The position numbers were made by a program, and so were the translations under genes. From NCBI RefSeq assembly GCF_009931435.1, contig NZ_CP043414.1: a DNA stretch of 64,000 nucleotides; one strand, given 5' to 3'. Every line of letters starts with the position of its first letter. Position 1 is the stretch's first letter. The notes beneath the pieces were generated by a model. The model was not told the DNA's origin, searched no databases, and saw nothing but the letters and a program-made list of their open reading frames with translations. Of this stretch, positions 1,298 to 53,501 are shown one piece after another. Source of the DNA: Escherichia coli. Lineage in GTDB: Bacteria; Pseudomonadota; Gammaproteobacteria; Enterobacterales; Enterobacteriaceae.

Positions 1298-2472
1298 GTT
1301 CCATGCTTGAGATTTTTTTCCCGCTTTGCGCCGCTGATTCCATCCGTTGGCAGCGTCGTACCGCCGACGTGGAGTGCGGCATCTGGCCTGACGTTGCTGA
1401 CGAACGTCTCCAGCAATGGCTGCAAACTGATGCGATTCGACTCTACATTCCCGGCGAATGGATCAGCGTCTGGCAGGTTGAACTGCCTGATGTCCCCCGC
1501 AAGCAGATACCAACTATTCTGCCCGCCTTACTGGAAGAAGAGCTGAACCAGGATATCGACGAACTGCATTTTGCCGCGTTGAAAATCGACCAGCAACAGG
1601 CAACCGTGGCAGTGATTCACCAGCAGCATATGCGCAACATTGCGCAGTGGTTGCAGACAAACGGCATTACCCGCGCCACCGTTGCACCGGACTGGATGTC
1701 CATTCCTTGTGGCTATATGGCTGGCGATGCGCAACGGGTTATCTGCCGCATCAATGAGTGCCGGGGATGGAGCGCCGGGCGGGCGCTGACTCCGGTCATG
1801 TTCCGCGCACAGTGCAATGAGCAGGATTTACCGCTTTCGCTAACCGTGGTCGGCATTGCTCCGGAAGAACTGTCTGCATGGGCTGGTGCGGACGCCGAAC
1901 GCCTGACCGTTACGGCTCTGCCCGCCATTACCATTTATGGCGAACCGGAAGGGAATCTGCTAACAGGGCCGTGGCAGCCTCGGGTCAGCTACCGAAAACA
2001 GTGGGCGCGCTGGCGGGTGATGATTCTGCCGATATTGCTGATTCTGGTTGCGCTGGCAGTGGAACGGGGCGTGACGTTATGGAGCATCAGCGAACAGGTG
2101 GCGCAAAGCCGCACCCAGGCGGAAAAAAAGTTCTTAACACTGTTCCCGGAGCAGAAGCGGATTGTGAATTTGCGTTCCCAGGTGACGATGGCGCTGAAAA
2201 AATATCGCCCGCAGGCCGATGATACCCGGCTGCTCGCCGAGTTGTCAGCGATAGCCAGCACCCTGAAATCAGCATCACTTTCCGACATCGAAATGCGTGG
2301 TTTCACCTTTGATCAAAAACGCCAGACGCTCCACCTTCAGTTGCGGGCCGCGAACTTTGCCAGTTTCGACAAACTGCGTAGCGCACTGGCGGCAGATTAT
2401 GTTGTGCAACAGGACGCGTTACAGAAAGAGGGTGATGCGGTTTCCGGCGGCGTAACGTTGCGGAGGAAATAA
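1294..2472 (+). CDS. gspL: Type II secretion inner-membrane protein GspL (K-12 yghE is a remnant of this gene)
   Basis: 392 aa; GTG start overlapping the gspK stop by 4 nt; single internal TM segment (WRVMILPILLILVALAV); followed by gspM-like gene. Confidence 0.75.
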   Translation: MSSMLEIFFPLCAADSIRWQRRTADVECGIWPDVADERLQQWLQTDAIRLYIPGEWISVWQVELPDVPRKQIPTILPALLEEELNQDIDELHFAALKIDQQQATVAVIHQQHMRNIAQWLQTNGITRATVAPDWMSIPCGYMAGDAQRVICRINECRGWSAGRALTPVMFRAQCNEQDLPLSLTVVGIAPEELSAWAGADAERLTVTALPAITIYGEPEGNLLTGPWQPRVSYRKQWARWRVMILPILLILVALAVERGVTLWSISEQVAQSRTQAEKKFLTLFPEQKRIVNLRSQVTMALKKYRPQADDTRLLAELSAIASTLKSASLSDIEMRGFTFDQKRQTLHLQLRAANFASFDKLRSALAADYVVQQDALQKEGDAVSGGVTLRRK

Positions 2473-2473
2473 C

Positions 2474-3010
2474 ATGTTACGCGATAAATTTATTCACTAT
2501 TTTCAGCAATGGCGTGAACGCCAGTTAAGCCGTGGCGAACACTGGCTGGCACAACACCTAGCGGGGCGTTCTCCGCGCGAAAAGGGCATGTTACTGGCTG
2601 CGGTAGTGTTCCTGTTTAGTGCCGGATATTACGTCCTCATCTGGCAACCGCTGAGCGAACGGATTGAGCAACAGGAGACGATGTTGCAGCAACTGGAGGC
2701 AATGAACACCCGACTGAAGCGCGCCGCGCCGGATATTATTGCAGCGCGAAACTCCGCCACAACAACGCCTGCGCAGGTATCGCGGGTCATCAGTGATAGT
2801 GCTTCCGCGCACTCGGTGGTCATCAAACGGATAGCCGAGCGTGGGGAGAATATTCAAGTCTGGATAGAACCTGTGGTGTTTAATGACCTGCTGAATTGGT
2901 TAAACGCGCTGGATGAAAAGTATGCGCTGCGGGTGACACAAATTGATGTCAGCGCTGGTGAGAAGACTGGGATGGTGAATGTGCAGCGGCTGGAGTTTGG
3001 ACGGGGATAA
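2474..3010 (+). CDS. gspM: Type II secretion protein GspM (YghD-like)
   Basis: 178 aa, same length as K-12 YghD; N-terminal TM; immediately after gspL; last gene before pheV. Confidence 0.8.
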   Translation: MLRDKFIHYFQQWRERQLSRGEHWLAQHLAGRSPREKGMLLAAVVFLFSAGYYVLIWQPLSERIEQQETMLQQLEAMNTRLKRAAPDIIAARNSATTTPAQVSRVISDSASAHSVVIKRIAERGENIQVWIEPVVFNDLLNWLNALDEKYALRVTQIDVSAGEKTGMVNVQRLEFGRG

Positions 3011-3120
3011 AGTATCAGGAGATTAATATCAATAAAATTACTCTCGTTAACGTGGCGAGAGTAATTCCCCCAGCCCTTATAAGCTAAGTTTTTTCGTGAA
3101 GGTTATTGTCAGATCCAAAA

Positions 3121-3148
3121 GCAAAAACCCGCCTTGTGGGCGGGTTCT
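3121..3148 (-). terminator. Rho-independent terminator downstream of pheV
   Basis: Minus-strand hairpin ACCCGCC-CACAA-GGCGGGT followed by a T-run, immediately 3' of the tRNA. Confidence 0.55.
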
Positions 3149-3157
3149 TTAGAATAG

Positions 3158-3233
3158 TGGTGCCCGGACTCGGAATCGAACCAAGGACACGGGGATTTTC
3201 AATCCCCTGCTCTACCGACTGAGCTATCCGGGC
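3158..3233 (-). tRNA. pheV: tRNA-Phe (GAA anticodon)
   Basis: Minus-strand sequence GCCCGGATAGCTCAGTCGGTAGAGCAGGGGATTGAAAATCCCCGTGTCCTTGGTTCGATTCCGAGTCCGGGCACCA matches E. coli tRNA-Phe; the CCA end is encoded. Confidence 0.95.
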
Positions 3234-4046: not shown

Positions 4047-4438
4047 AAGAGTTCCTGTTAACTGTATTGTTTGATTTTCTTATTATGAACTTTTTGCCTT
4101 GTTGATGGCTTGTTTGGTCGCAAAGTCCTGGCTTGCACGCTTTAGCGAAAGGTGCCATGATTGCGCGAATTTTCTCCTCTCTGTACGGAGTTTGCCCGAT
4201 GCACGCCACCTCCTTACATTCTCTCGCTTATCGCCGTTTCGCGCGAAACTCCTCCCTTTTTCTGCTCATGCGGTGAAGTTAACGCACGCTCACTGCAGGA
4301 CAACAGTAAAATCAGAGCGTTTCTGCTTTTACTGATGTCTGGCGGTCGGAGCTGGTGACCAGTTTGACCCATATCTCGTGGGGCAGGGTTTTTCACCTTG
4401 TCCGGTATTCTTACTTCCCCGAAACGGGTTTTGCGCTT

Positions 4439-6622: not shown

Positions 6623-7879
6623 TTAGTGGCTAACCGTCTGTGTGCCTGTCGGGACACGAACGTGTTTATATTTGAACATCGCCATGAACGCGAAGGCCAG
6701 AACCACGGAGTAACCTGCGAAAATCAGCCATACGGTCTGCCAGTCGGTAATGCCGTTTTGGGTGTACATCTCAACCACTTTACCGCTCACGATGCCGCCG
6801 AGGATACAGCCGAAGCCGTTAGTCATCATCAGGAACATCCCCTGCGCACTGGCGCGAATTGCCGGGCTAACTTCTTTTTCGACAAACACCGAACCAGAGA
6901 TGTTGAAGAAGTCGAATGCGCAACCGTAAACGATCATCGACAGTACCAGCAGCACGGTACCGAACGGAGTCGGGTCGCCGTAAGCAAACAGCGCAAAACG
7001 CAGGATCCACGCCACGATACTGATCATCATTACGTTCTTAATACCGTAGCGGCTTAAGAAGAACGGGATGGTCAGAATGAACAGGGTTTCAGAGATCTGC
7101 GAAATCGACATGATGATTGACGCATGCTGCACGATGAAGCTGCTGGCAAACATCGGATCTTTGTCGAAGCTGTGCAGGAAGGTGTTACCGAACATGTTGG
7201 TAATCTGCAGTTCCGCGCCCAGCAGCATTGAGAAGATGAAGAAGATTGCCATACGCTTGTTTTTAAACAGCGCGAATGCATCGAGGCCCAGCAGGGTTGT
7301 CCAGCTCTGATTCGCTTGTTGTTTAGCAACCGGAATATGCGGCAGAGTCAGGGTAAACAGAACCAGAACGGCGGAAAGAGCTGCGCCAATATACAGCTGC
7401 ATGTGGCTTAATTCGAAGCCAGACAGGCTCACCACCCACATTGCCATGATAAAGCCGATGGTGCCCCAGATACGGATTGGCGGGAAGTCAGTAACGATAT
7501 CCATCCCGGCATTTTGCAGGCGATAGTATGAGATGGTGTTGATTAACCCAAGCGTTGGCATATAAGCAAACGAGTTAATCAATATCACAAGGAACATCGC
7601 CTCCGGCGTCGTGACCTGTGCTGCCATGAACAGCGTGATAGCGCCAATGGTGTGGCAAATGGCATATACCCATTTCGCACTTAACCATTTGTCGGCCACA
7701 ATCCCCAGCAGCGCAGGCATAAAGACCGCGGCGATACCCAGTGAGCTATAAACTGCGCCAATAGAAGCACCGTCAAACTTCAGGGTAACAAACATATAGG
7801 AACCGAGGGTCGTCAGCCAACTTCCCCACAGACAGAACTGCAGAAAAGAGAGGATTTTCAGCTGCAGCTTAAGATTCAT
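6623..7879 (-). CDS. nupG: Nucleoside:H+ symporter NupG (MFS)
   Basis: ORF trimmed to MNLKLQLKILSFLQF start (418 aa); 12-TM profile. Confidence 0.9.
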   Translation of the reverse strand: MNLKLQLKILSFLQFCLWGSWLTTLGSYMFVTLKFDGASIGAVYSSLGIAAVFMPALLGIVADKWLSAKWVYAICHTIGAITLFMAAQVTTPEAMFLVILINSFAYMPTLGLINTISYYRLQNAGMDIVTDFPPIRIWGTIGFIMAMWVVSLSGFELSHMQLYIGAALSAVLVLFTLTLPHIPVAKQQANQSWTTLLGLDAFALFKNKRMAIFFIFSMLLGAELQITNMFGNTFLHSFDKDPMFASSFIVQHASIIMSISQISETLFILTIPFFLSRYGIKNVMMISIVAWILRFALFAYGDPTPFGTVLLVLSMIVYGCAFDFFNISGSVFVEKEVSPAIRASAQGMFLMMTNGFGCILGGIVSGKVVEMYTQNGITDWQTVWLIFAGYSVVLAFAFMAMFKYKHVRVPTGTQTVSH

Positions 7880-46859: not shown

Positions 46860-47821
46860 TGTCCCTGGCGTGGCCATTATTTCGCGTTACGGAGCAGGCA
46901 GCGTTGGCTGCCTGGCCGCAAACCGGATGTGGCAACAAAAATAAAATTGATGGCCTGGCGGTCACCGCGATGCGCCAGGCATTAAACGATGTCGCTTTTC
47001 GTGGGCGAGTGGTTATCGGCGAGGGAGAAATTGACCATGCGCCGATGCTGTGGATTGGCGAAGAGGTGGGCAAAGGCGATGGGCCAGAAGTCGATATCGC
47101 GGTTGATCCCATTGAAGGTACGCGGATGGTGGCGATGGGGCAGAGCAATGCGCTGGCGGTCATGGCTTTCGCCCCTCGAGATAGCCTGTTACACGCGCCC
47201 GATATGTATATGAAAAAACTGGTTGTTAATCGGCTGGCGGCGGGCGCGATTGATCTGTCTTTGCCTCTGGCGGACAACTTGCGCAACGTGGCGAAAGCGT
47301 TGGGCAAACCGCTGGACCAGCTACGTATGGTTACGCTAGATAAACCGCGCCTGAGAGCCGCAATTGAGGAAGCGACACAACTGGGCGTGAAGGTTTTTGC
47401 CCTGCCGGATGGCGATGTCGCCGCCAGCGTGCTGACCTGCTGGCAAGATAATCCTTACGACGTGATGTACACCATCGGTGGCGCGCCGGAAGGTGTTATT
47501 TCTGCCTGTGCTGTTAAAGCATTGGGTGGGGATATGCAGGCCGAGCTGATTGATTTTTGTCAGGCAAAAGGGGATTACACGGAAAATCGGCAGATTGCAG
47601 AGCAGGAGCGCAAGCGTTGCAAGGAAATGGGCGTTGACGTTAACCGTGTGTACTCGCTCGATGAACTGGTGAGGGGGAACGATATCCTCTTTAGCGCTAC
47701 GGGCGTGACGGGCGGTGAGTTGGTGAACGGTATCCAACAGACGGCGAATGGGGTGCGGACGCAGACATTACTGATCGGCGGCGCGGACCAAACGTGTAAT
47801 ATAATAGACTCCCTGCATTGA
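46856..47821 (+). CDS. yggF: Class II fructose-1,6-bisphosphatase (GlpX paralogue) YggF
   Basis: 321 aa; overlaps the yggP stop by 4 nt. Confidence 0.85.
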   Translation: MMSLAWPLFRVTEQAALAAWPQTGCGNKNKIDGLAVTAMRQALNDVAFRGRVVIGEGEIDHAPMLWIGEEVGKGDGPEVDIAVDPIEGTRMVAMGQSNALAVMAFAPRDSLLHAPDMYMKKLVVNRLAAGAIDLSLPLADNLRNVAKALGKPLDQLRMVTLDKPRLRAAIEEATQLGVKVFALPDGDVAASVLTCWQDNPYDVMYTIGGAPEGVISACAVKALGGDMQAELIDFCQAKGDYTENRQIAEQERKRCKEMGVDVNRVYSLDELVRGNDILFSATGVTGGELVNGIQQTANGVRTQTLLIGGADQTCNIIDSLH

Positions 47822-47842
47822 TGGTGATCTATCGGAAGACCA

Positions 47843-48352
47843 ATGGCGACGCTGACAGAAGATGATGTGCTTGAGCAACTGGACGCACAGGACAATTTAT
47901 TGTCATTTATGAGAACTACACATGTCATTTTGCTCCAGGGGATACGCCAGTTTCTGCCGTCGCTGTTTGTCGATAATGATGAAGAGATCGTGGAATATGC
48001 AGTGAAGCCGTTACTCGCTCAAAGCGGCCCGCTTGACGATATTGATGTTGCGCTACGTTTGATTTTTGCGCTGGGGAAAATGGACAAATGGCTGTATGCC
48101 GATATCACGCACTTTTCCCAGTTCTGGCATTACCTGAATGAACAGGATGAAACGCCCGGATTTGCCGATGACATTACCTGGGATTTTATCAGCAACGTCA
48201 ATAGCATAACCCGCAATGCGACGCTCTATGACGCGTTAAAAGCGATGAAGTTCGCTGATTTCGCCGTCTGGTCAGAGGTGCGTTTTAGTGGGATGGTCAA
48301 AACGGCGCTGACGCTGGCAGTAACGACCACCTTAAAGGAATTAACGCCGTGA
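47843..48352 (+). CDS. yggD: MtlR-family regulator YggD
   Basis: 169 aa; position between yggF and yggC. Confidence 0.8.
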   Translation: MATLTEDDVLEQLDAQDNLLSFMRTTHVILLQGIRQFLPSLFVDNDEEIVEYAVKPLLAQSGPLDDIDVALRLIFALGKMDKWLYADITHFSQFWHYLNEQDETPGFADDITWDFISNVNSITRNATLYDALKAMKFADFAVWSEVRFSGMVKTALTLAVTTTLKELTP

Positions 48353-49062
48353 AAATCGAACTGACGGTGAATGGATTGAAGGTACAGGCGCAGTACCCGA
48401 ACGAAGAGATTGAAAATGTGCATAAACCGTTGCTGCGTATGCTGGCAGCCTTACAGACGGTAAATCCGCAGCGGCGTACCGTGGTTTTTCTTTGCGCTCC
48501 GCCGGGGACGGGTAAATCTACCCTAACCACTTTCTGGGAATATCTCGCGCAACAAGACCCGGAACTACCCGCTATTCAGACGCTGCCGATGGATGGTTTT
48601 CACCATTACAATAGCTGGCTGGATGCGCATCAATTGCGCCCCTTTAAAGGCGCACCAGAGACATTCGATGTGGCAAAACTGGCGGAAAATCTGCGCCAGG
48701 TAATGGAAGGGGATTGTACGTGGCCGCAGTACGATCGACAAAAGCATGATCCTGTTGAAGATGCGTTGCACGTTACCGCACCACTCGTCATCGTCGAAGG
48801 AAACTGGTTGTTGCTGGATGACGAGAAGTGGCGCCAGCTTGCGCAATTTTGTGATTTCTCGATCTTTATCAACGCGCCAGCTACTGCGTTGCGGGAACGA
48901 CTGGTGGGGCGCAAGCTGGCGGGAGGGTTATCGCTGGCAGACGCAGAAGCCTTTTATGACCGTACCGATGGGCCGAATGTTCGCCGGGTGCTGGAAGAGA
49001 GTCTGCCTGCAAATTTGACCTTAATGATGACCGCTACGGGTGAATATCGTCTGGTGGATTAA
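48349..49062 (+). CDS. yggC: P-loop kinase-like protein YggC
   Basis: 237 aa; Walker A GTGKST (LCAPPGTGKSTL). Confidence 0.85.
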   Translation: MKIELTVNGLKVQAQYPNEEIENVHKPLLRMLAALQTVNPQRRTVVFLCAPPGTGKSTLTTFWEYLAQQDPELPAIQTLPMDGFHHYNSWLDAHQLRPFKGAPETFDVAKLAENLRQVMEGDCTWPQYDRQKHDPVEDALHVTAPLVIVEGNWLLLDDEKWRQLAQFCDFSIFINAPATALRERLVGRKLAGGLSLADAEAFYDRTDGPNVRRVLEESLPANLTLMMTATGEYRLVD

Positions 49063-49711
49063 CGTTCCTGATTACACCATCTTCCAGTCGCACCACACGA
49101 GAGAAATGACGCCGGGTAAATGCGGCGTCATGACTGATTGCTACGACGCTCGTGCCTCGCTGGCGGCACTTTTCCAGCCAGCTTTCAAACACGCTCATCC
49201 AATTTTCGTCAAAATCCCGACTCGGCTCGTCCAGCAGCAATAGCGGCGGAGAGAGTGCTTCCAGGCAGGCGACGGCGACCATCCGTCGCTGCGCACTATG
49301 CAGATCTAACGGATGCGCGCTGGCAGTGTCTGCTAACTGACAGCATTGCAGGGCAGCATTGGTACGTTGAGTGATTTCATCCGCCAGGCATTTTTGCAGT
49401 TTCAAACCAAATGCGATCTCGTCAGCGACGGTGCTGTGAAAAAGCTGGTTTTCCGCTTCCTGAAACAGTACGCCAATCTTTGCTGCACGTTGGCGGTTTT
49501 TCAGGTTTTTCATCGCCTGTTGTTGCAGCATAACCGTACCGGCTGTGGGCGTAAGAAGACCTGCCATTACTCGTAACAGCGTCGATTTTCCCGCGCCATT
49601 GTCGCCGGTCAGCGCCAACCATTCACCTTGTTTGAGTTGCAGAGAAATGTCGCAAAGACAATCCGTTGCCGCGCCAGGCCAGCGATAAGACATCTGATTT
49701 AACGTTAACAT
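49034..49711 (-). CDS. ABC-type ATPase, second ATPase of an ECF-type transporter, with degenerate signature motif
   Basis: Walker A GDNGAGKST; Walker B LLLLDEP; H-loop ISHD; signature position reads LHSAQ instead of LSGGQ. Start ambiguous: 49711 (MLTLNQMSYRW) or 49744. Confidence 0.65.
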   Translation of the reverse strand: MLTLNQMSYRWPGAATDCLCDISLQLKQGEWLALTGDNGAGKSTLLRVMAGLLTPTAGTVMLQQQAMKNLKNRQRAAKIGVLFQEAENQLFHSTVADEIAFGLKLQKCLADEITQRTNAALQCCQLADTASAHPLDLHSAQRRMVAVACLEALSPPLLLLDEPSRDFDENWMSVFESWLEKCRQRGTSVVAISHDAAFTRRHFSRVVRLEDGVIRNVNPPDDIHP

Positions 49712-50388
49712 AGTGGCTGGAGCGCTCCGTTTTGCAATTGCCACGCTTGCTGGCAGTAGTTCAGGAAAGGTGTGCGATGACGTTCAAAAAGAATAATCAG
49801 CGAACCACGTTCAAACGCCCAGTGTTGTAAGCGCTGCAACAGCATTTCGCTGGCCTGCGGCGTCAGGCGACTAAAGGCTTCATCAAGAATTAATAGTTTT
49901 GGCTGCATCGCGATGGCGCAGGCGATGACCACGCGCTGTGTCTCTCCACCGGAGAGTGTTGCCGGGTGACGATGGCGCAACGGCTGGCACTCGGTCAGAG
50001 TCAGGGCAGCATCAATCCGCGCCATAATCTCCTCTTCAGCAAGACACAGATTTTCTGGCCCAAAGGCAACTTCTTCTTCCACGCTAAAGGTACAGCCGGA
50101 GAGCTGCAAATAGGGCGATTGCTGAACGAGCTGGATGGTGGCGGATTGTTCATTAAGCGGGAGATACCCAATGGGCGTACCGAGAAGCGTCCCCGTGCCG
50201 GTTATCTCTCCTGGCAGAAAGTCCGGATACCAGCCCGCCATCAGTTGCGCCAGCGTACTTTTGCCACTGCCGTTGTCACCAAAGATGGCGACTATCCCCG
50301 GTTTGACATAGTGAAAGTCATAACAGAACGGAGGGTGCGTTGAGTGTGTCGGGCAATAGCGAAACTGTTCTAACGTAACCATATCCAC
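49705..50388 (-). CDS. ABC-type ATPase, first ATPase of an ECF-type transporter
   Basis: Walker A GDNGSGKST; Q-loop; canonical signature LSGGETQRV; Walker B LLILDEA; about 227 aa. Confidence 0.75.
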   Translation of the reverse strand: MDMVTLEQFRYCPTHSTHPPFCYDFHYVKPGIVAIFGDNGSGKSTLAQLMAGWYPDFLPGEITGTGTLLGTPIGYLPLNEQSATIQLVQQSPYLQLSGCTFSVEEEVAFGPENLCLAEEEIMARIDAALTLTECQPLRHRHPATLSGGETQRVVIACAIAMQPKLLILDEAFSRLTPQASEMLLQRLQHWAFERGSLIILFERHRTPFLNYCQQAWQLQNGALQPLC

Positions 50389-51077
50389 GCTCCGAATTCT
50401 GCCAGCATCAGCAAGATCATGGCGTAACGTGCCACTTTTTCCAGGTTACTGTCAGGCGGTGCCCATAACGTAGTGCGCCGGTTGTGGATCCGAAATGCCC
50501 GCATATCCAGCGCCGCACCACGGATAGCCAGATCGTTTAGCGCATTGTGTGTTAGCGGAATAATTAGCGCGGGTATAGCACGTAAACGCTGATACCAGCC
50601 CTCATCCAGCGGCACCCCACGGGCGCGCTGCGCTTCATGAATAATCGCTAATTGCCGTTTTAACTGCTCAACGACCAACAAAGGCCCAGCGAACAGATAA
50701 GCGACGCCCGGCGGCAGGCGAGAAGCAAACAAAGCGCGGATAAAACGTTGCACTGGGACGAATTGCATCCACAACTGCGAGGTTGAAACAATCGCCAGAA
50801 TCCGCAACCAGAGCGTAATAGCATGCGTCCACCGTTCTGGCGAGCGTGGCGTGCCGCTTAGCCATTCTGTCAGCCAGCCACCGTGTACCAGCCACAGTCC
50901 AGCCCCCAGCGAGAACATCAGCCAGACAACATATTTTACCCGCCGCCGCGTGGCCTTTAGCGCAATAAGGCAGAAAAAGGTCGCCGCGCTATAGAATGGC
51001 AGTATTGTCTGTGTGGGCAGGATAAGCGTGGTGCAGGCCGCCAGCGCCCACAGCGTTAGGGATGTAAACGGATGCAT
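50370..51077 (-). CDS. ECF transporter transmembrane T component (EcfT/CbiQ-like)
   Basis: 235 aa polytopic protein with Arg-containing coupling motif (EAQRARGVPLD); start codon abuts the stop of the upstream gene. Confidence 0.65.
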   Translation of the reverse strand: MHPFTSLTLWALAACTTLILPTQTILPFYSAATFFCLIALKATRRRVKYVVWLMFSLGAGLWLVHGGWLTEWLSGTPRSPERWTHAITLWLRILAIVSTSQLWMQFVPVQRFIRALFASRLPPGVAYLFAGPLLVVEQLKRQLAIIHEAQRARGVPLDEGWYQRLRAIPALIIPLTHNALNDLAIRGAALDMRAFRIHNRRTTLWAPPDSNLEKVARYAMILLMLAEFGAWIWLR

Positions 51078-51656
51078 TTAGCGCACGGCAGCCATTGCCG
51101 GAAAATGGCGCGTGGTGCGAATCGGCAGCTGACGCAGTAAAAGCCAGACAATCACCGCTGTAAGAATTTTATCGACCAGGTTTGCGCCTATCACCGTAAT
51201 CGCCACCGACTCCACCAGGTTTTGCCCCATAGAGTGCATCCAGGCAACGAACAAATCGGCTCCGCTACCGGTGACACCGCCGAACAGCGCAGTACGCAGC
51301 GGTACAGCGACGACCGTTACTGCAAGCGTAATAATCACGCCGCTGACAACGACTTTTGGCAGGGTGCGAAACCAACCCGCTCGCGCCAGCCAACCGGCGA
51401 CCAGGCCAATAACCATCGCCACGGGGGCAAAGGCGGCGGCGATCGGGTCGGTGAGCAATCCCCAGAGTAAATTGGTCAGTAAGCCGGTCAGCATCCCGAT
51501 CACCGGACCAAGCAGTACCGCGCTAATAAGTGTGCCGATGGAGTCGAGAAATATAGGTAATTTGACCATGCTGGCCAGTTGCCCGCCAATCATATTGATG
51601 GCGATAGAGATAACAATCAACACCAGTGCTTGACTGGAAAAGTGGCGACGCGCCAT
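51078..51656 (-). CDS. Putative ECF transporter substrate-capture S component
   Basis: About 190 aa small polytopic protein (start chosen at MARRHFSSQALVLIVISIAINMIGG; ORF extends further); LDSIGT-like motif; first membrane gene of the module. Confidence 0.5.
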   Translation of the reverse strand: MARRHFSSQALVLIVISIAINMIGGQLASMVKLPIFLDSIGTLISAVLLGPVIGMLTGLLTNLLWGLLTDPIAAAFAPVAMVIGLVAGWLARAGWFRTLPKVVVSGVIITLAVTVVAVPLRTALFGGVTGSGADLFVAWMHSMGQNLVESVAITVIGANLVDKILTAVIVWLLLRQLPIRTTRHFPAMAAVR

Positions 51657-51678
51657 AAGAAAACCTCTCTGAAAGTAG

Positions 51679-52110
51679 TTATTTAACGGGGGAAATATGC
51701 AATTCGTCGTAACCAGAAAGCGCGCAAGGTTGGCGGCTAAACGCCAGCTCCTCAAGGCAGCCGATCACCAGTTCAAGCGTGGTCCGCACGGTACAGCCGG
51801 GCATCATATGACCGCCAAGCATCGTGCCGTGTGGATCGGAAACGCAGAGATGAAGATGTTCACCACTCTGTTCCAGTGTGCCGTTCAATGCGATGACTTC
51901 GAACTTACCGCTTAGTAGGGCCGTGTTTTCTTGCCCGGCATAGCGTAAGGCGACGTCAGTCAGACTGCCGGTACAACCTGCAATCCACGCGGCGTGGAGT
52001 TGTTGTTGCTGCGCGAAGGCGCGTAATTGGGAGAGAACTTCCTGCCCTGGGAGCAGGCGCAGCGCGTAAAAGCGTGCGGAGGAAGAATATGGGTAGGGCA
52101 ATGTCATCAT
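51679..52110 (-). CDS. Small cytoplasmic protein, possibly PPC/DUF296 domain
   Basis: 143 aa soluble protein; first gene of the minus-strand operon, divergent from epd; domain call by resemblance only. Confidence 0.45.
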   Translation of the reverse strand: MMTLPYPYSSSARFYALRLLPGQEVLSQLRAFAQQQQLHAAWIAGCTGSLTDVALRYAGQENTALLSGKFEVIALNGTLEQSGEHLHLCVSDPHGTMLGGHMMPGCTVRTTLELVIGCLEELAFSRQPCALSGYDELHISPVK

Positions 52111-52481
52111 TGGAGTACTCCGAAACTCGGACGTATTGCGGATAATATCGACGCTGCATCAGTCATATTCTGATATAAGTCAGGGTTTGTGACGGCACAA
52201 CGAAAAGATTTTGCTACGCTTATTCGTGATTCTGCAAAGTGGAATAAATTCCACAGGGGCGGGGATGAAAACGTGACGTAAGTCAGATAATTGTCTTCTT
52301 TGACTGGACAATCATTCCTTTTATTCCACGTTTCGCTTATCCTAGCTGAAGCGTTTCAGTCGATTAAATGTTCGACAATTAACCAATCAGTCGCAGTTTG
52401 CGACAGGTAAGGTTTCCCCGGACGATTTGCTGGATTACTCTGTCTGGCAAATTTGCTCAGGGAAAACCTTGCAGGAGATCT

Positions 52482-53501
52482 ATGACCGTACGCGTAGCGA
52501 TAAATGGCTTCGGTCGCATCGGGCGTAATGTGGTTCGTGCTTTGTATGAATCCGGACGCCGGGCGGAAATTACCGTGGTGGCAATCAACGAACTGGCGGA
52601 TGCTGCGGGCATGGCGCATTTGTTGAAATATGACACCAGTCATGGCCGTTTTGCATGGGAAGTACGACAGGAACGCGATCAACTTTTTGTTGGTGATGAC
52701 GCCATCCGCGTATTGCATGAACGTTCACTGCAATCGCTCCCATGGCGTGAACTGGGCGTCGATGTGGTTCTCGACTGCACCGGCGTATATGGCTCCCGCG
52801 AGCATGGCGAAGCACATATTGCCGCCGGGGCCAAAAAAGTGCTCTTTTCACATCCTGGCAGTAACGATCTCGATGCGACCGTTGTTTACGGCGTCAATCA
52901 GGATCAACTTCGTGCGGAACACCGCATCGTTTCTAACGCTTCCTGTACCACGAATTGCATAATTCCCGTCATCAAATTGTTAGATGATGCGTACGGTATT
53001 GAGTCCGGCACTGTGACCACAATTCACTCCGCCATGCACGATCAACAGGTTATTGATGCATACCATCCTGACCTGCGTCGCACCCGGGCAGCCAGCCAGT
53101 CGATCATTCCGGTCGATACTAAACTGGCCGCCGGTATCACACGATTTTTTCCGCAATTTAACGATCGCTTTGAAGCGATTGCGGTACGTGTGCCAACCAT
53201 AAATGTGACGGCAATCGATTTAAGCGTGACGGTGAAGAAACCTGTAAAAGCCAATGAAGTCAACCTGTTGCTGCAAAAAGCAGCACAAGGTGCATTTCAT
53301 GGTATAGTTGACTATACGGAATTGCCGTTGGTCTCTGTAGATTTTAACCACGATCCGCACAGTGCCATTGTCGATGGCACCCAAACCCGGGTCAGTGGCG
53401 CACACCTGATCAAAACGTTGGTCTGGTGCGATAACGAATGGGGCTTTGCTAACCGAATGCTCGACACGACGTTAGCTATGGCTACTGTTGCTTTCAGGTA
53501 A
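52482..53501 (+). CDS. epd: D-erythrose-4-phosphate dehydrogenase
   Basis: ORF trimmed to [25 protein letters not shown] start (339 aa); SCTTNC active-site motif. Confidence 0.95.

Follow-up and report, generated by a model that had tools for sequence, protein, structure and literature searches.

The convergent genes yggC and the terminal ATPase gene of an ECF-type ABC transporter module share their last 29 bp in the window (the whole stretch of Escherichia coli DNA that was analysed, 64,000 nucleotides in length). Comparison with other enteric bacteria makes it likely that this is an ancient, vertically inherited convergent overlap of the ordinary sort, with transcripts that may be ended by Rho, and that in K-12 the corresponding segment has been replaced. 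The type of overlap is already known: it is the textbook convergent kind, shown by public annotation in thousands of genomes. The overlap matters little in itself; its modest use would be in settling the ECF module as an old resident of the interval between yggC and epd.

The overlapping genes

The 29 bp common to the two 3′ ends are evident from the open reading frame list and the raw sequence (Table 1). Across them YggC (...ATGEYRLVD*) faces the ATPase (...NPPDDIHP*). The final codons of yggC are ACG GGT GAA TAT CGT CTG GTG GAT TAA, with the stop TAA at 49060-49062, and the TAG stop of the minus-strand ATPase gene is read as CTA on the plus strand at 49034-49036. Codon position 1 thus lies opposite position 1, 2 opposite 3 and 3 opposite 2. 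Both gene ends are placed identically by RefSeq/PGAP in O157:H7 strain 7636 and in E. coli 2020CK-00188, whose sequence agrees with that of the window at 99.9% of positions over 4.1 kb; in locus numbering the kinase occupies 1501..2214 (+) and the ATPase 2186..2863 (-), again an overlap of 29 bp. The convergent overlap and the coordinates given for it in the initial annotation are therefore borne out by open reading frames, sequence and public annotation alike. Both coding genes are genuine, they share nucleotides and the arrangement is conserved in relatives: of 5,426 complete E. coli genomes, 3,320 carry the 141-bp stretch spanning the junction with an identity of 95% or more. That an antisense frame should stay open for nine codons would be no surprise on chance alone ((61/64)^9, about 0.65); what goes beyond chance is the retention of the same junction phase in 16 species.

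Table 1. Features of the yggC-epd interval, in positions of the window.
Feature	Position	Strand	Basis or remark
yggC, nucleoside/nucleotide kinase family, 237 aa	48349..49062	+	ORF, NF006742, PGAP on identical gene
Left breakpoint of the K-12 versus module polymorphism	48832..48833		inside yggC, codon ~161-162
Tail-to-tail overlap	49034..49062	both	final 9 codons and stop of each gene, phase (123:132)
Terminal ECF-type ABC ATPase, 225 aa (PGAP start)	49034..49711	-	longest ORF to 49744; PF00005 3.5e-27; PGAP
Perfect 9-bp hairpin, ATGACGCCG-N8-CGGCGTCAT	49106..49131	+	in ATPase H-loop codons HDAAFTRRH, 44-69 nt past yggC stop
C-rich, G-poor read-through stretch, candidate Rho loading region	49141..49244	+	C/G 2.1-2.55, +79..+182 nt past yggC stop
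ATPase 1	49705-50382	-	PF00005, PGAP
EcfT	50370-51077	-	PF02361 CbiQ (weak), PGAP
ECF S component	51078-51656	-	PF12822, PGAP
PPC/DUF296 protein	51679-52110	-	first gene of the five-gene operon
Right breakpoint of the polymorphism	52240..52260		PPC-epd divergent intergenic region

YggC closes the co-directional run yggP-glpX(yggF)-fumE(yggD)-yggC and scores 520 bits against the NCBIfam model NF006742 (cutoff 402). A literature search on yggC returned matches that were almost all irrelevant sequence-string hits. The tail motif MTxxGEYRxx is kept in enteric YggC proteins with or without the module.

On the other strand, two ATPases, a T component and an S component lie in one operon behind the PPC gene, which identifies an ECF transporter module, and the PGAP names agree with this assignment; epd-pgk-fbaA follow on the plus strand beyond it. 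The S component exceeds the PF12822 cutoff (34.6 bits against 30.7), EcfT falls below that of PF02361 CbiQ (21.8 bits against 25), the terminal ATPase matches the ECF_ATPase_1/2 models below their equivalog cutoffs, and no protein of the module reaches an NCBIfam equivalog cutoff. Start sites differ between PGAP and the longest reading frame, both for the terminal ATPase (49711 against a GTG at 49744, with no effect on the 3′ end) and for the S component (51656 against a TTG at 51755), so that the mechanical list of open reading frames overstates the 5′ ends of these two genes.

At 225 aa each, the two ECF ATPases are short: the canonical EcfA models are matched up to about position 223-231 of 279, and the usual C-terminal region is missing. 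A truncation of the terminal ATPase on insertion, which would have removed the C-terminal region of about 50 aa present in EcfA models, was considered and rejected, the upstream ATPase being just as short. In place of the ABC signature LSGGQ, the terminal ATPase has LHSAQ and the upstream ATPase LSGGE, which suggests one degenerate ATP site.

In alignments of the terminal ATPase, conservation extends to “FSRVVRL..G.I” and is followed by complete divergence (NVNPPDDIHP, DIHPRPSSPA, DTRPLPSSLT etc.). About 8 nt separate the last conserved codon from the yggC stop, and the last ~10 residues, which are encoded antisense to yggC, are unconserved between genera. Within the ATPase gene, the overlap has the lowest synonymous variation (0.12-0.21, compared with 0.50 overall), which fits dual coding dominated by yggC.

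Conservation of the junction and the K-12 allele

YggC was searched for in one genome per GTDB species, which yielded 67 loci, followed by tblastn of the module proteins and determination of the exact stop positions. All 16 module-bearing species have the two genes overlapping, by 11-92 bp and without any change of phase. The overlap is 29 bp in E. albertii and E. whittamii, 44 bp in six species of the Citrobacter freundii group, 26 bp in Silvania confinis, 68 bp in C. koseri, 41 bp in two Superficieibacter species, 92 bp in Enterobacteriaceae UBA5654 and 11 bp in Phytobacter massiliensis. Every one of these lengths equals 2 modulo 3, meaning that the relative phase has never changed. In Escherichia it is the yggC codons GCT-ACG that create the antisense TAG and so make the ATPase five residues shorter than in Citrobacter. 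Junctions outside E. coli show graded identity of 70-95%, not near-identical DNA.

The module has a patchy distribution across genera and is missing from C. braakii, C. amalonaticus, Raoultella and Lelliottia. Either ancestral presence with repeated loss or an old single insertion followed by spread via recombination in the flanks would account for this pattern. In Buttiauxella sp. B2 (locus 1-884) homologues of the S component and PPC protein lie about 5 kb upstream of yggC rather than between yggC and epd, showing that the module can occupy another position near the same operon. Within the window, the GC content of the module (0.53-0.58) resembles that of its flanks (0.49-0.56). It contains only transporter and PPC genes, with no mobility genes among them and no flanking repeats found, and it does not show the marks of a mobile genomic island or recent insertion (integrase, transposase, repeats, tRNA target or deviating composition).

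These observations can be joined into a sequence of events. The five-gene PPC and ECF operon on the minus strand would long have resided between yggC and epd, both on the plus strand, in the Escherichia/Citrobacter group. As the folded core of the ATPase ends only about 8 nt from the yggC stop, its frame reads on into antisense yggC to the first stop encountered. The C-terminal tail so produced would be unconstrained, and its drift in length between genera would have generated overlaps of 11-92 bp, with the shared sequence presumably dictated by the conserved tail of YggC itself.

The initial annotation had suggested alignment to the K-12 yggC 3′ end and downstream sequence as a check, and this alignment shows that divergence starts inside yggC (~48832), not at the overlap. 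Identity to K-12 yggC per 30 nt is 25-30/30 up to nt 480 and 9-25/30 thereafter, with a sharp step at about nt 484. K-12 YggC also has 237 aa, with frame and length exactly preserved, and its amino acid identity to the window is 97% over residues 1-160 and 62% over residues 161-237. On the far side, K-12 homology restarts at 52261 by BLAST and is weakly visible from ~52240 when the sequences are read by eye. In total about 3.4 kb of the window (the yggC 3′ third, the module and the promoter side of PPC) corresponds to about 300 bp in K-12, where yggC is directly followed by epd after a 284-bp spacer.

The two allele types differ in their relationships. The window-type yggC 3′ third follows phylogeny, with 88-98% nucleotide identity in other Escherichia and about 70-77% in Citrobacter. 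For the K-12-type 3′ third, identity does not exceed 70% in any sampled species except one E. coli-labelled representative at 89%. Blastn against the 67 yggC loci of GTDB species thus revealed no donor, and a protein homologue search with the 77-aa K-12 tail found only seven E. coli-like fragments; with no donor found, it is the sharp identity step by itself that points to a replacement. On this basis K-12 seems to have lost the module not by a clean deletion but by allelic replacement, in which it acquired a divergent yggC 3′ third: a segment of about 3.4 kb (~48832 to ~52250) would have been exchanged, by a crossover in yggC, for about 300 bp from a module-less donor. The comparison favours the view that the module has long resided in the yggC-epd interval and was lost from K-12, and that the K-12 state is derived.

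The K-12 type occurs in 2,089 E. coli genomes (1,706 at least 99% identical, 163 at 95-99% and 220 at 90-95%). Together with the 3,320 genomes of the module type, it accounts for 5,409 of the 5,426 genomes, so that about 38% are without the module. The locus is unusually diverse within E. coli: positions 48349-52450 of the window are 99.9% identical to one strain and only 95-97.5% identical to the other module-bearing genomes, and K-12-type alleles differ from one another by up to about 10%. One or two matches to the region fall on plasmid-labelled records. In E. coli PS3Tanimalfeces2 the match is limited to the 359 bp of the query upstream of epd, and the feature beneath it is annotated as cmtA, which suggests a larger deletion or rearrangement removing yggC and its neighbours.

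With a crossover inside yggC, K-12 YggC would be chimeric: over its last 77 residues it shares only 62% identity with the allele that most E. coli carry. This matters wherever K-12 YggC serves as the reference for the species. The tail of about 77 residues (48832-49062; 2985-3214 of the K-12 locus) is at most 67% identical to that of any sampled species.

Three further independent losses all retain the window-type yggC end. Two are in cryptic-clade Escherichia: strain MOD1-EC7003 is missing window positions 49283-52086 and keeps a decayed ATPase remnant, and strain E1V33 (locus 6900-6990) is missing ~49273-52028, leaving an open reading frame in which the N-terminus of PPC is fused in frame to the C-terminus of the ATPase. 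The E1V33 deletion lies between imperfect direct repeats of about 20 bp, GGAGAGAGTGCTTCCAGGCAGGCG and GGGAGAGAACTTCCTGCCC..GGAGCAGGCG (window 49248-49271 and 52029-52059). In E. coli BS-04 (locus 4055-4110) positions 49034-52208 are replaced by about 51 bp of unrelated filler, TTTTTTTTTAAATAAGAAGACCTGTCTTACTTAACAGCGACGATTTATCCG; this clips yggC at its tail, and annotation lists it as a frameshifted pseudogene, in an assembly that also has indel errors. The overlap constrains such deletions: the scars either keep the ATPase 3′ end, which carries the yggC tail (MOD1-EC7003 and E1V33), or clip yggC into a pseudogene (BS-04).

Transcript ends at the junction

As there is no intergenic DNA, the transcript of each operon must end inside the opposing gene. 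That there is no intergenic terminator, as the initial annotation had it, is correct, if trivially so, given zero intergenic space. A consensus promoter and terminator scan covering 48300-52500 and the spacer between yggC and epd in K-12 gave nothing at the junction, no canonical terminator included, with counts at the shuffle expectation. An Rfam scan of 47500-53000 at E<=1 produced no hit at the junction and two chance-level matches elsewhere. Folding of 48960-49140 was non-significant overall on both strands (z of -0.35 and -0.83), and only one local hairpin stands out.

This hairpin has a predicted free energy of -15.5 kcal/mol on the plus strand and -14.0 on the minus strand. It has the stable GC-rich stem of an intrinsic terminator and lacks the adjacent U-tract: the tails are GACTGATT on the plus strand (3/8 T) and TTCTCTCG on the minus strand (4/8 T), both below the threshold of 5/8 T. 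Each of the 13 distinct sequences from Escherichia and Citrobacter retains all nine pairs on the plus strand, with one compensatory CG to UA pair with G-U intermediates, and G-U cells number 18 on the plus strand against 5 on the minus strand. It is intact in the decayed MOD1-EC7003 scar, with no changes at 18 stem positions, 18 at the 43 positions just upstream and 3 at the 8 loop positions. Synonymous variation at the hairpin is only mildly reduced (0.41 compared with 0.50 overall, rank 30 of 221 windows). The hairpin is absent in Superficieibacter and Phytobacter, and elsewhere its conservation is confounded by the conserved H-loop amino acids. It is a weak candidate for a 3′-end structure of yggC mRNA, where it may define or protect the 3′ end.

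The composition of the read-through RNA is compatible with Rho. Among 78-nt windows taken from both strands of the whole 64 kb, the plus-strand stretch downstream of yggC ranks at or above the 99th percentile for its C/G ratio; beyond the ATPase stop the ratio on the minus-strand RNA reaches 1.6-1.76. The read-through RNA is thus untranslated, C-rich and G-poor, as is expected of rut-like sequence at a Rho-dependent terminator. Rho-dependent termination of antisense read-through is plausible for both operons and would be the most likely route by which their transcripts end.

Alternative explanations and known systems

An annotation artefact, in which one of the proteins ends earlier and there is no true coding overlap, is extremely improbable. 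The unconserved last ~10 residues of the ATPase could be taken to favour it, as could the solved YggC-family homologue 3c8u, which stops at the equivalent of YggC residue ~225 and so marks the YggC tail as an enteric extension, though a conserved one. Neither frame, however, contains an in-frame stop before 49060 (+) or 49036 (-) in the open reading frame list or the sequence, and translation must run to the first stop. GEYR is conserved over about 50 enteric species, and YggC has 235-239 aa in nearly all enterics, whether the module is present or absent. An earlier yggC end and an upstream ATPase stop, which the initial annotation had named as findings that would speak against the overlap, were both looked for; the former does not agree with these lengths, and the latter appears neither in the open reading frame list nor in the species comparison. 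The possibility that the ECF module recently entered a K-12-like backbone, its last gene landing on the yggC end, is largely refuted and can be regarded as very unlikely. It could draw on the many K-12-type E. coli genomes, in which epd follows yggC, and on the module-less arrangement of several genera. Yet junction, phase and gene order are common to E. albertii, E. whittamii, Citrobacter, Silvania, Superficieibacter and Phytobacter with graded divergence, K-12 already differs 230 bp upstream of the overlap, within yggC, and the deletion scars in two cryptic-clade Escherichia and one E. coli strain record losses of the module; mobility genes, flanking repeats and a GC anomaly are all absent. 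The relevance that the initial annotation saw in the overlap for how module and backbone meet accordingly holds in one respect, in that an old resident lost from K-12 is favoured over an insertion, and fails in another, since the overlap is not the joint and the polymorphism begins about 230 bp upstream.

It is also conceivable, but rather unlikely, that the overlap is a selected excludon-like device, in which paired 3′ ends or polymerase collision would let expression of one operon lower that of the other. Consistent with this, the overlap has never been lost in the 16 module-bearing species although both stops move, each read-through RNA necessarily covers the 3′ end of the other gene, and the conserved plus-strand hairpin inside the ATPase gene, with its G-U asymmetry favouring that strand, is retained in a decayed scar. 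There is, however, a simpler cause for the persistence of the overlap: the ATPase core ends right next to the yggC stop, so that any read-on produces an overlap. Substitutions are moreover tolerated in both tails, the scans detected no promoter, sRNA or Rfam signal, and the hairpin evidence is weak. We likewise give only a small chance to the related idea that overlap and hairpin form a selected shared 3′-end module, with yggC transcripts ending in the ATPase H-loop codons and ECF transcripts inside yggC. If true, the sugar-phosphate and transporter operons would be coupled in excludon-like fashion through complementary 3′ ends of about 70-100 nt, and the retention of the hairpin in deletion scars would also be explained. 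An ordinary overlap that has been inherited vertically remains our preferred explanation.

The initial annotation had called the convergent overlap unusual, which does not hold when K-12 is taken as the standard: 75 convergent overlapping pairs have been counted there among 4,131 adjacent pairs (Huvet & Stumpf 2014, PMC4161906), and 58 in another survey (Lillo & Krakauer 2007, PMC2174442). The phase seen here, (123:132), is the commonest among convergent overlaps of at least 5 nt, at 49% (PMC2174442). Such overlaps usually originate by movement of stop codons, and terminators must then sit inside the coding sequence of the partner (PMC2174442, PMC4161906). The yggC-ATPase pair has the same properties, with conserved genes on opposite strands, the commonest phase and a length that drifts by gain and loss of stops. 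There is no essential difference from known convergent overlaps; 29 bp is longer than the very common 4-bp class and well within the range.

Compared with bidirectional intrinsic terminators, the junction likewise has one perfect palindromic hairpin between the coding cores, foldable on either strand. Here, however, it lies inside coding sequence and has a U-tract on neither side, and its use on the minus strand would, unlike in those terminators, stop the ATPase mRNA ahead of its own stop codon. Rho terminates antisense or untranslated read-through transcription in E. coli, and the RNA past each stop of the present pair is of this kind, being untranslated, antisense, C-rich and G-poor, so that Rho may act on it. 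The excludons of Listeria are long antisense transcripts with a demonstrated reciprocal effect. The yggC and ECF operons resemble them in being two functionally different operons with obligatorily overlapping transcripts. Finally, the O-islands and K-islands of the O157/K-12 comparison are strain-specific segment replacements between E. coli genomes. The yggC-epd polymorphism has the same form, in that the module of O157 and most E. coli is exchanged for a shorter, unrelated-looking K-12 segment with breakpoints in conserved flanks; it differs in that one breakpoint is intragenic, with frame and length of yggC preserved.
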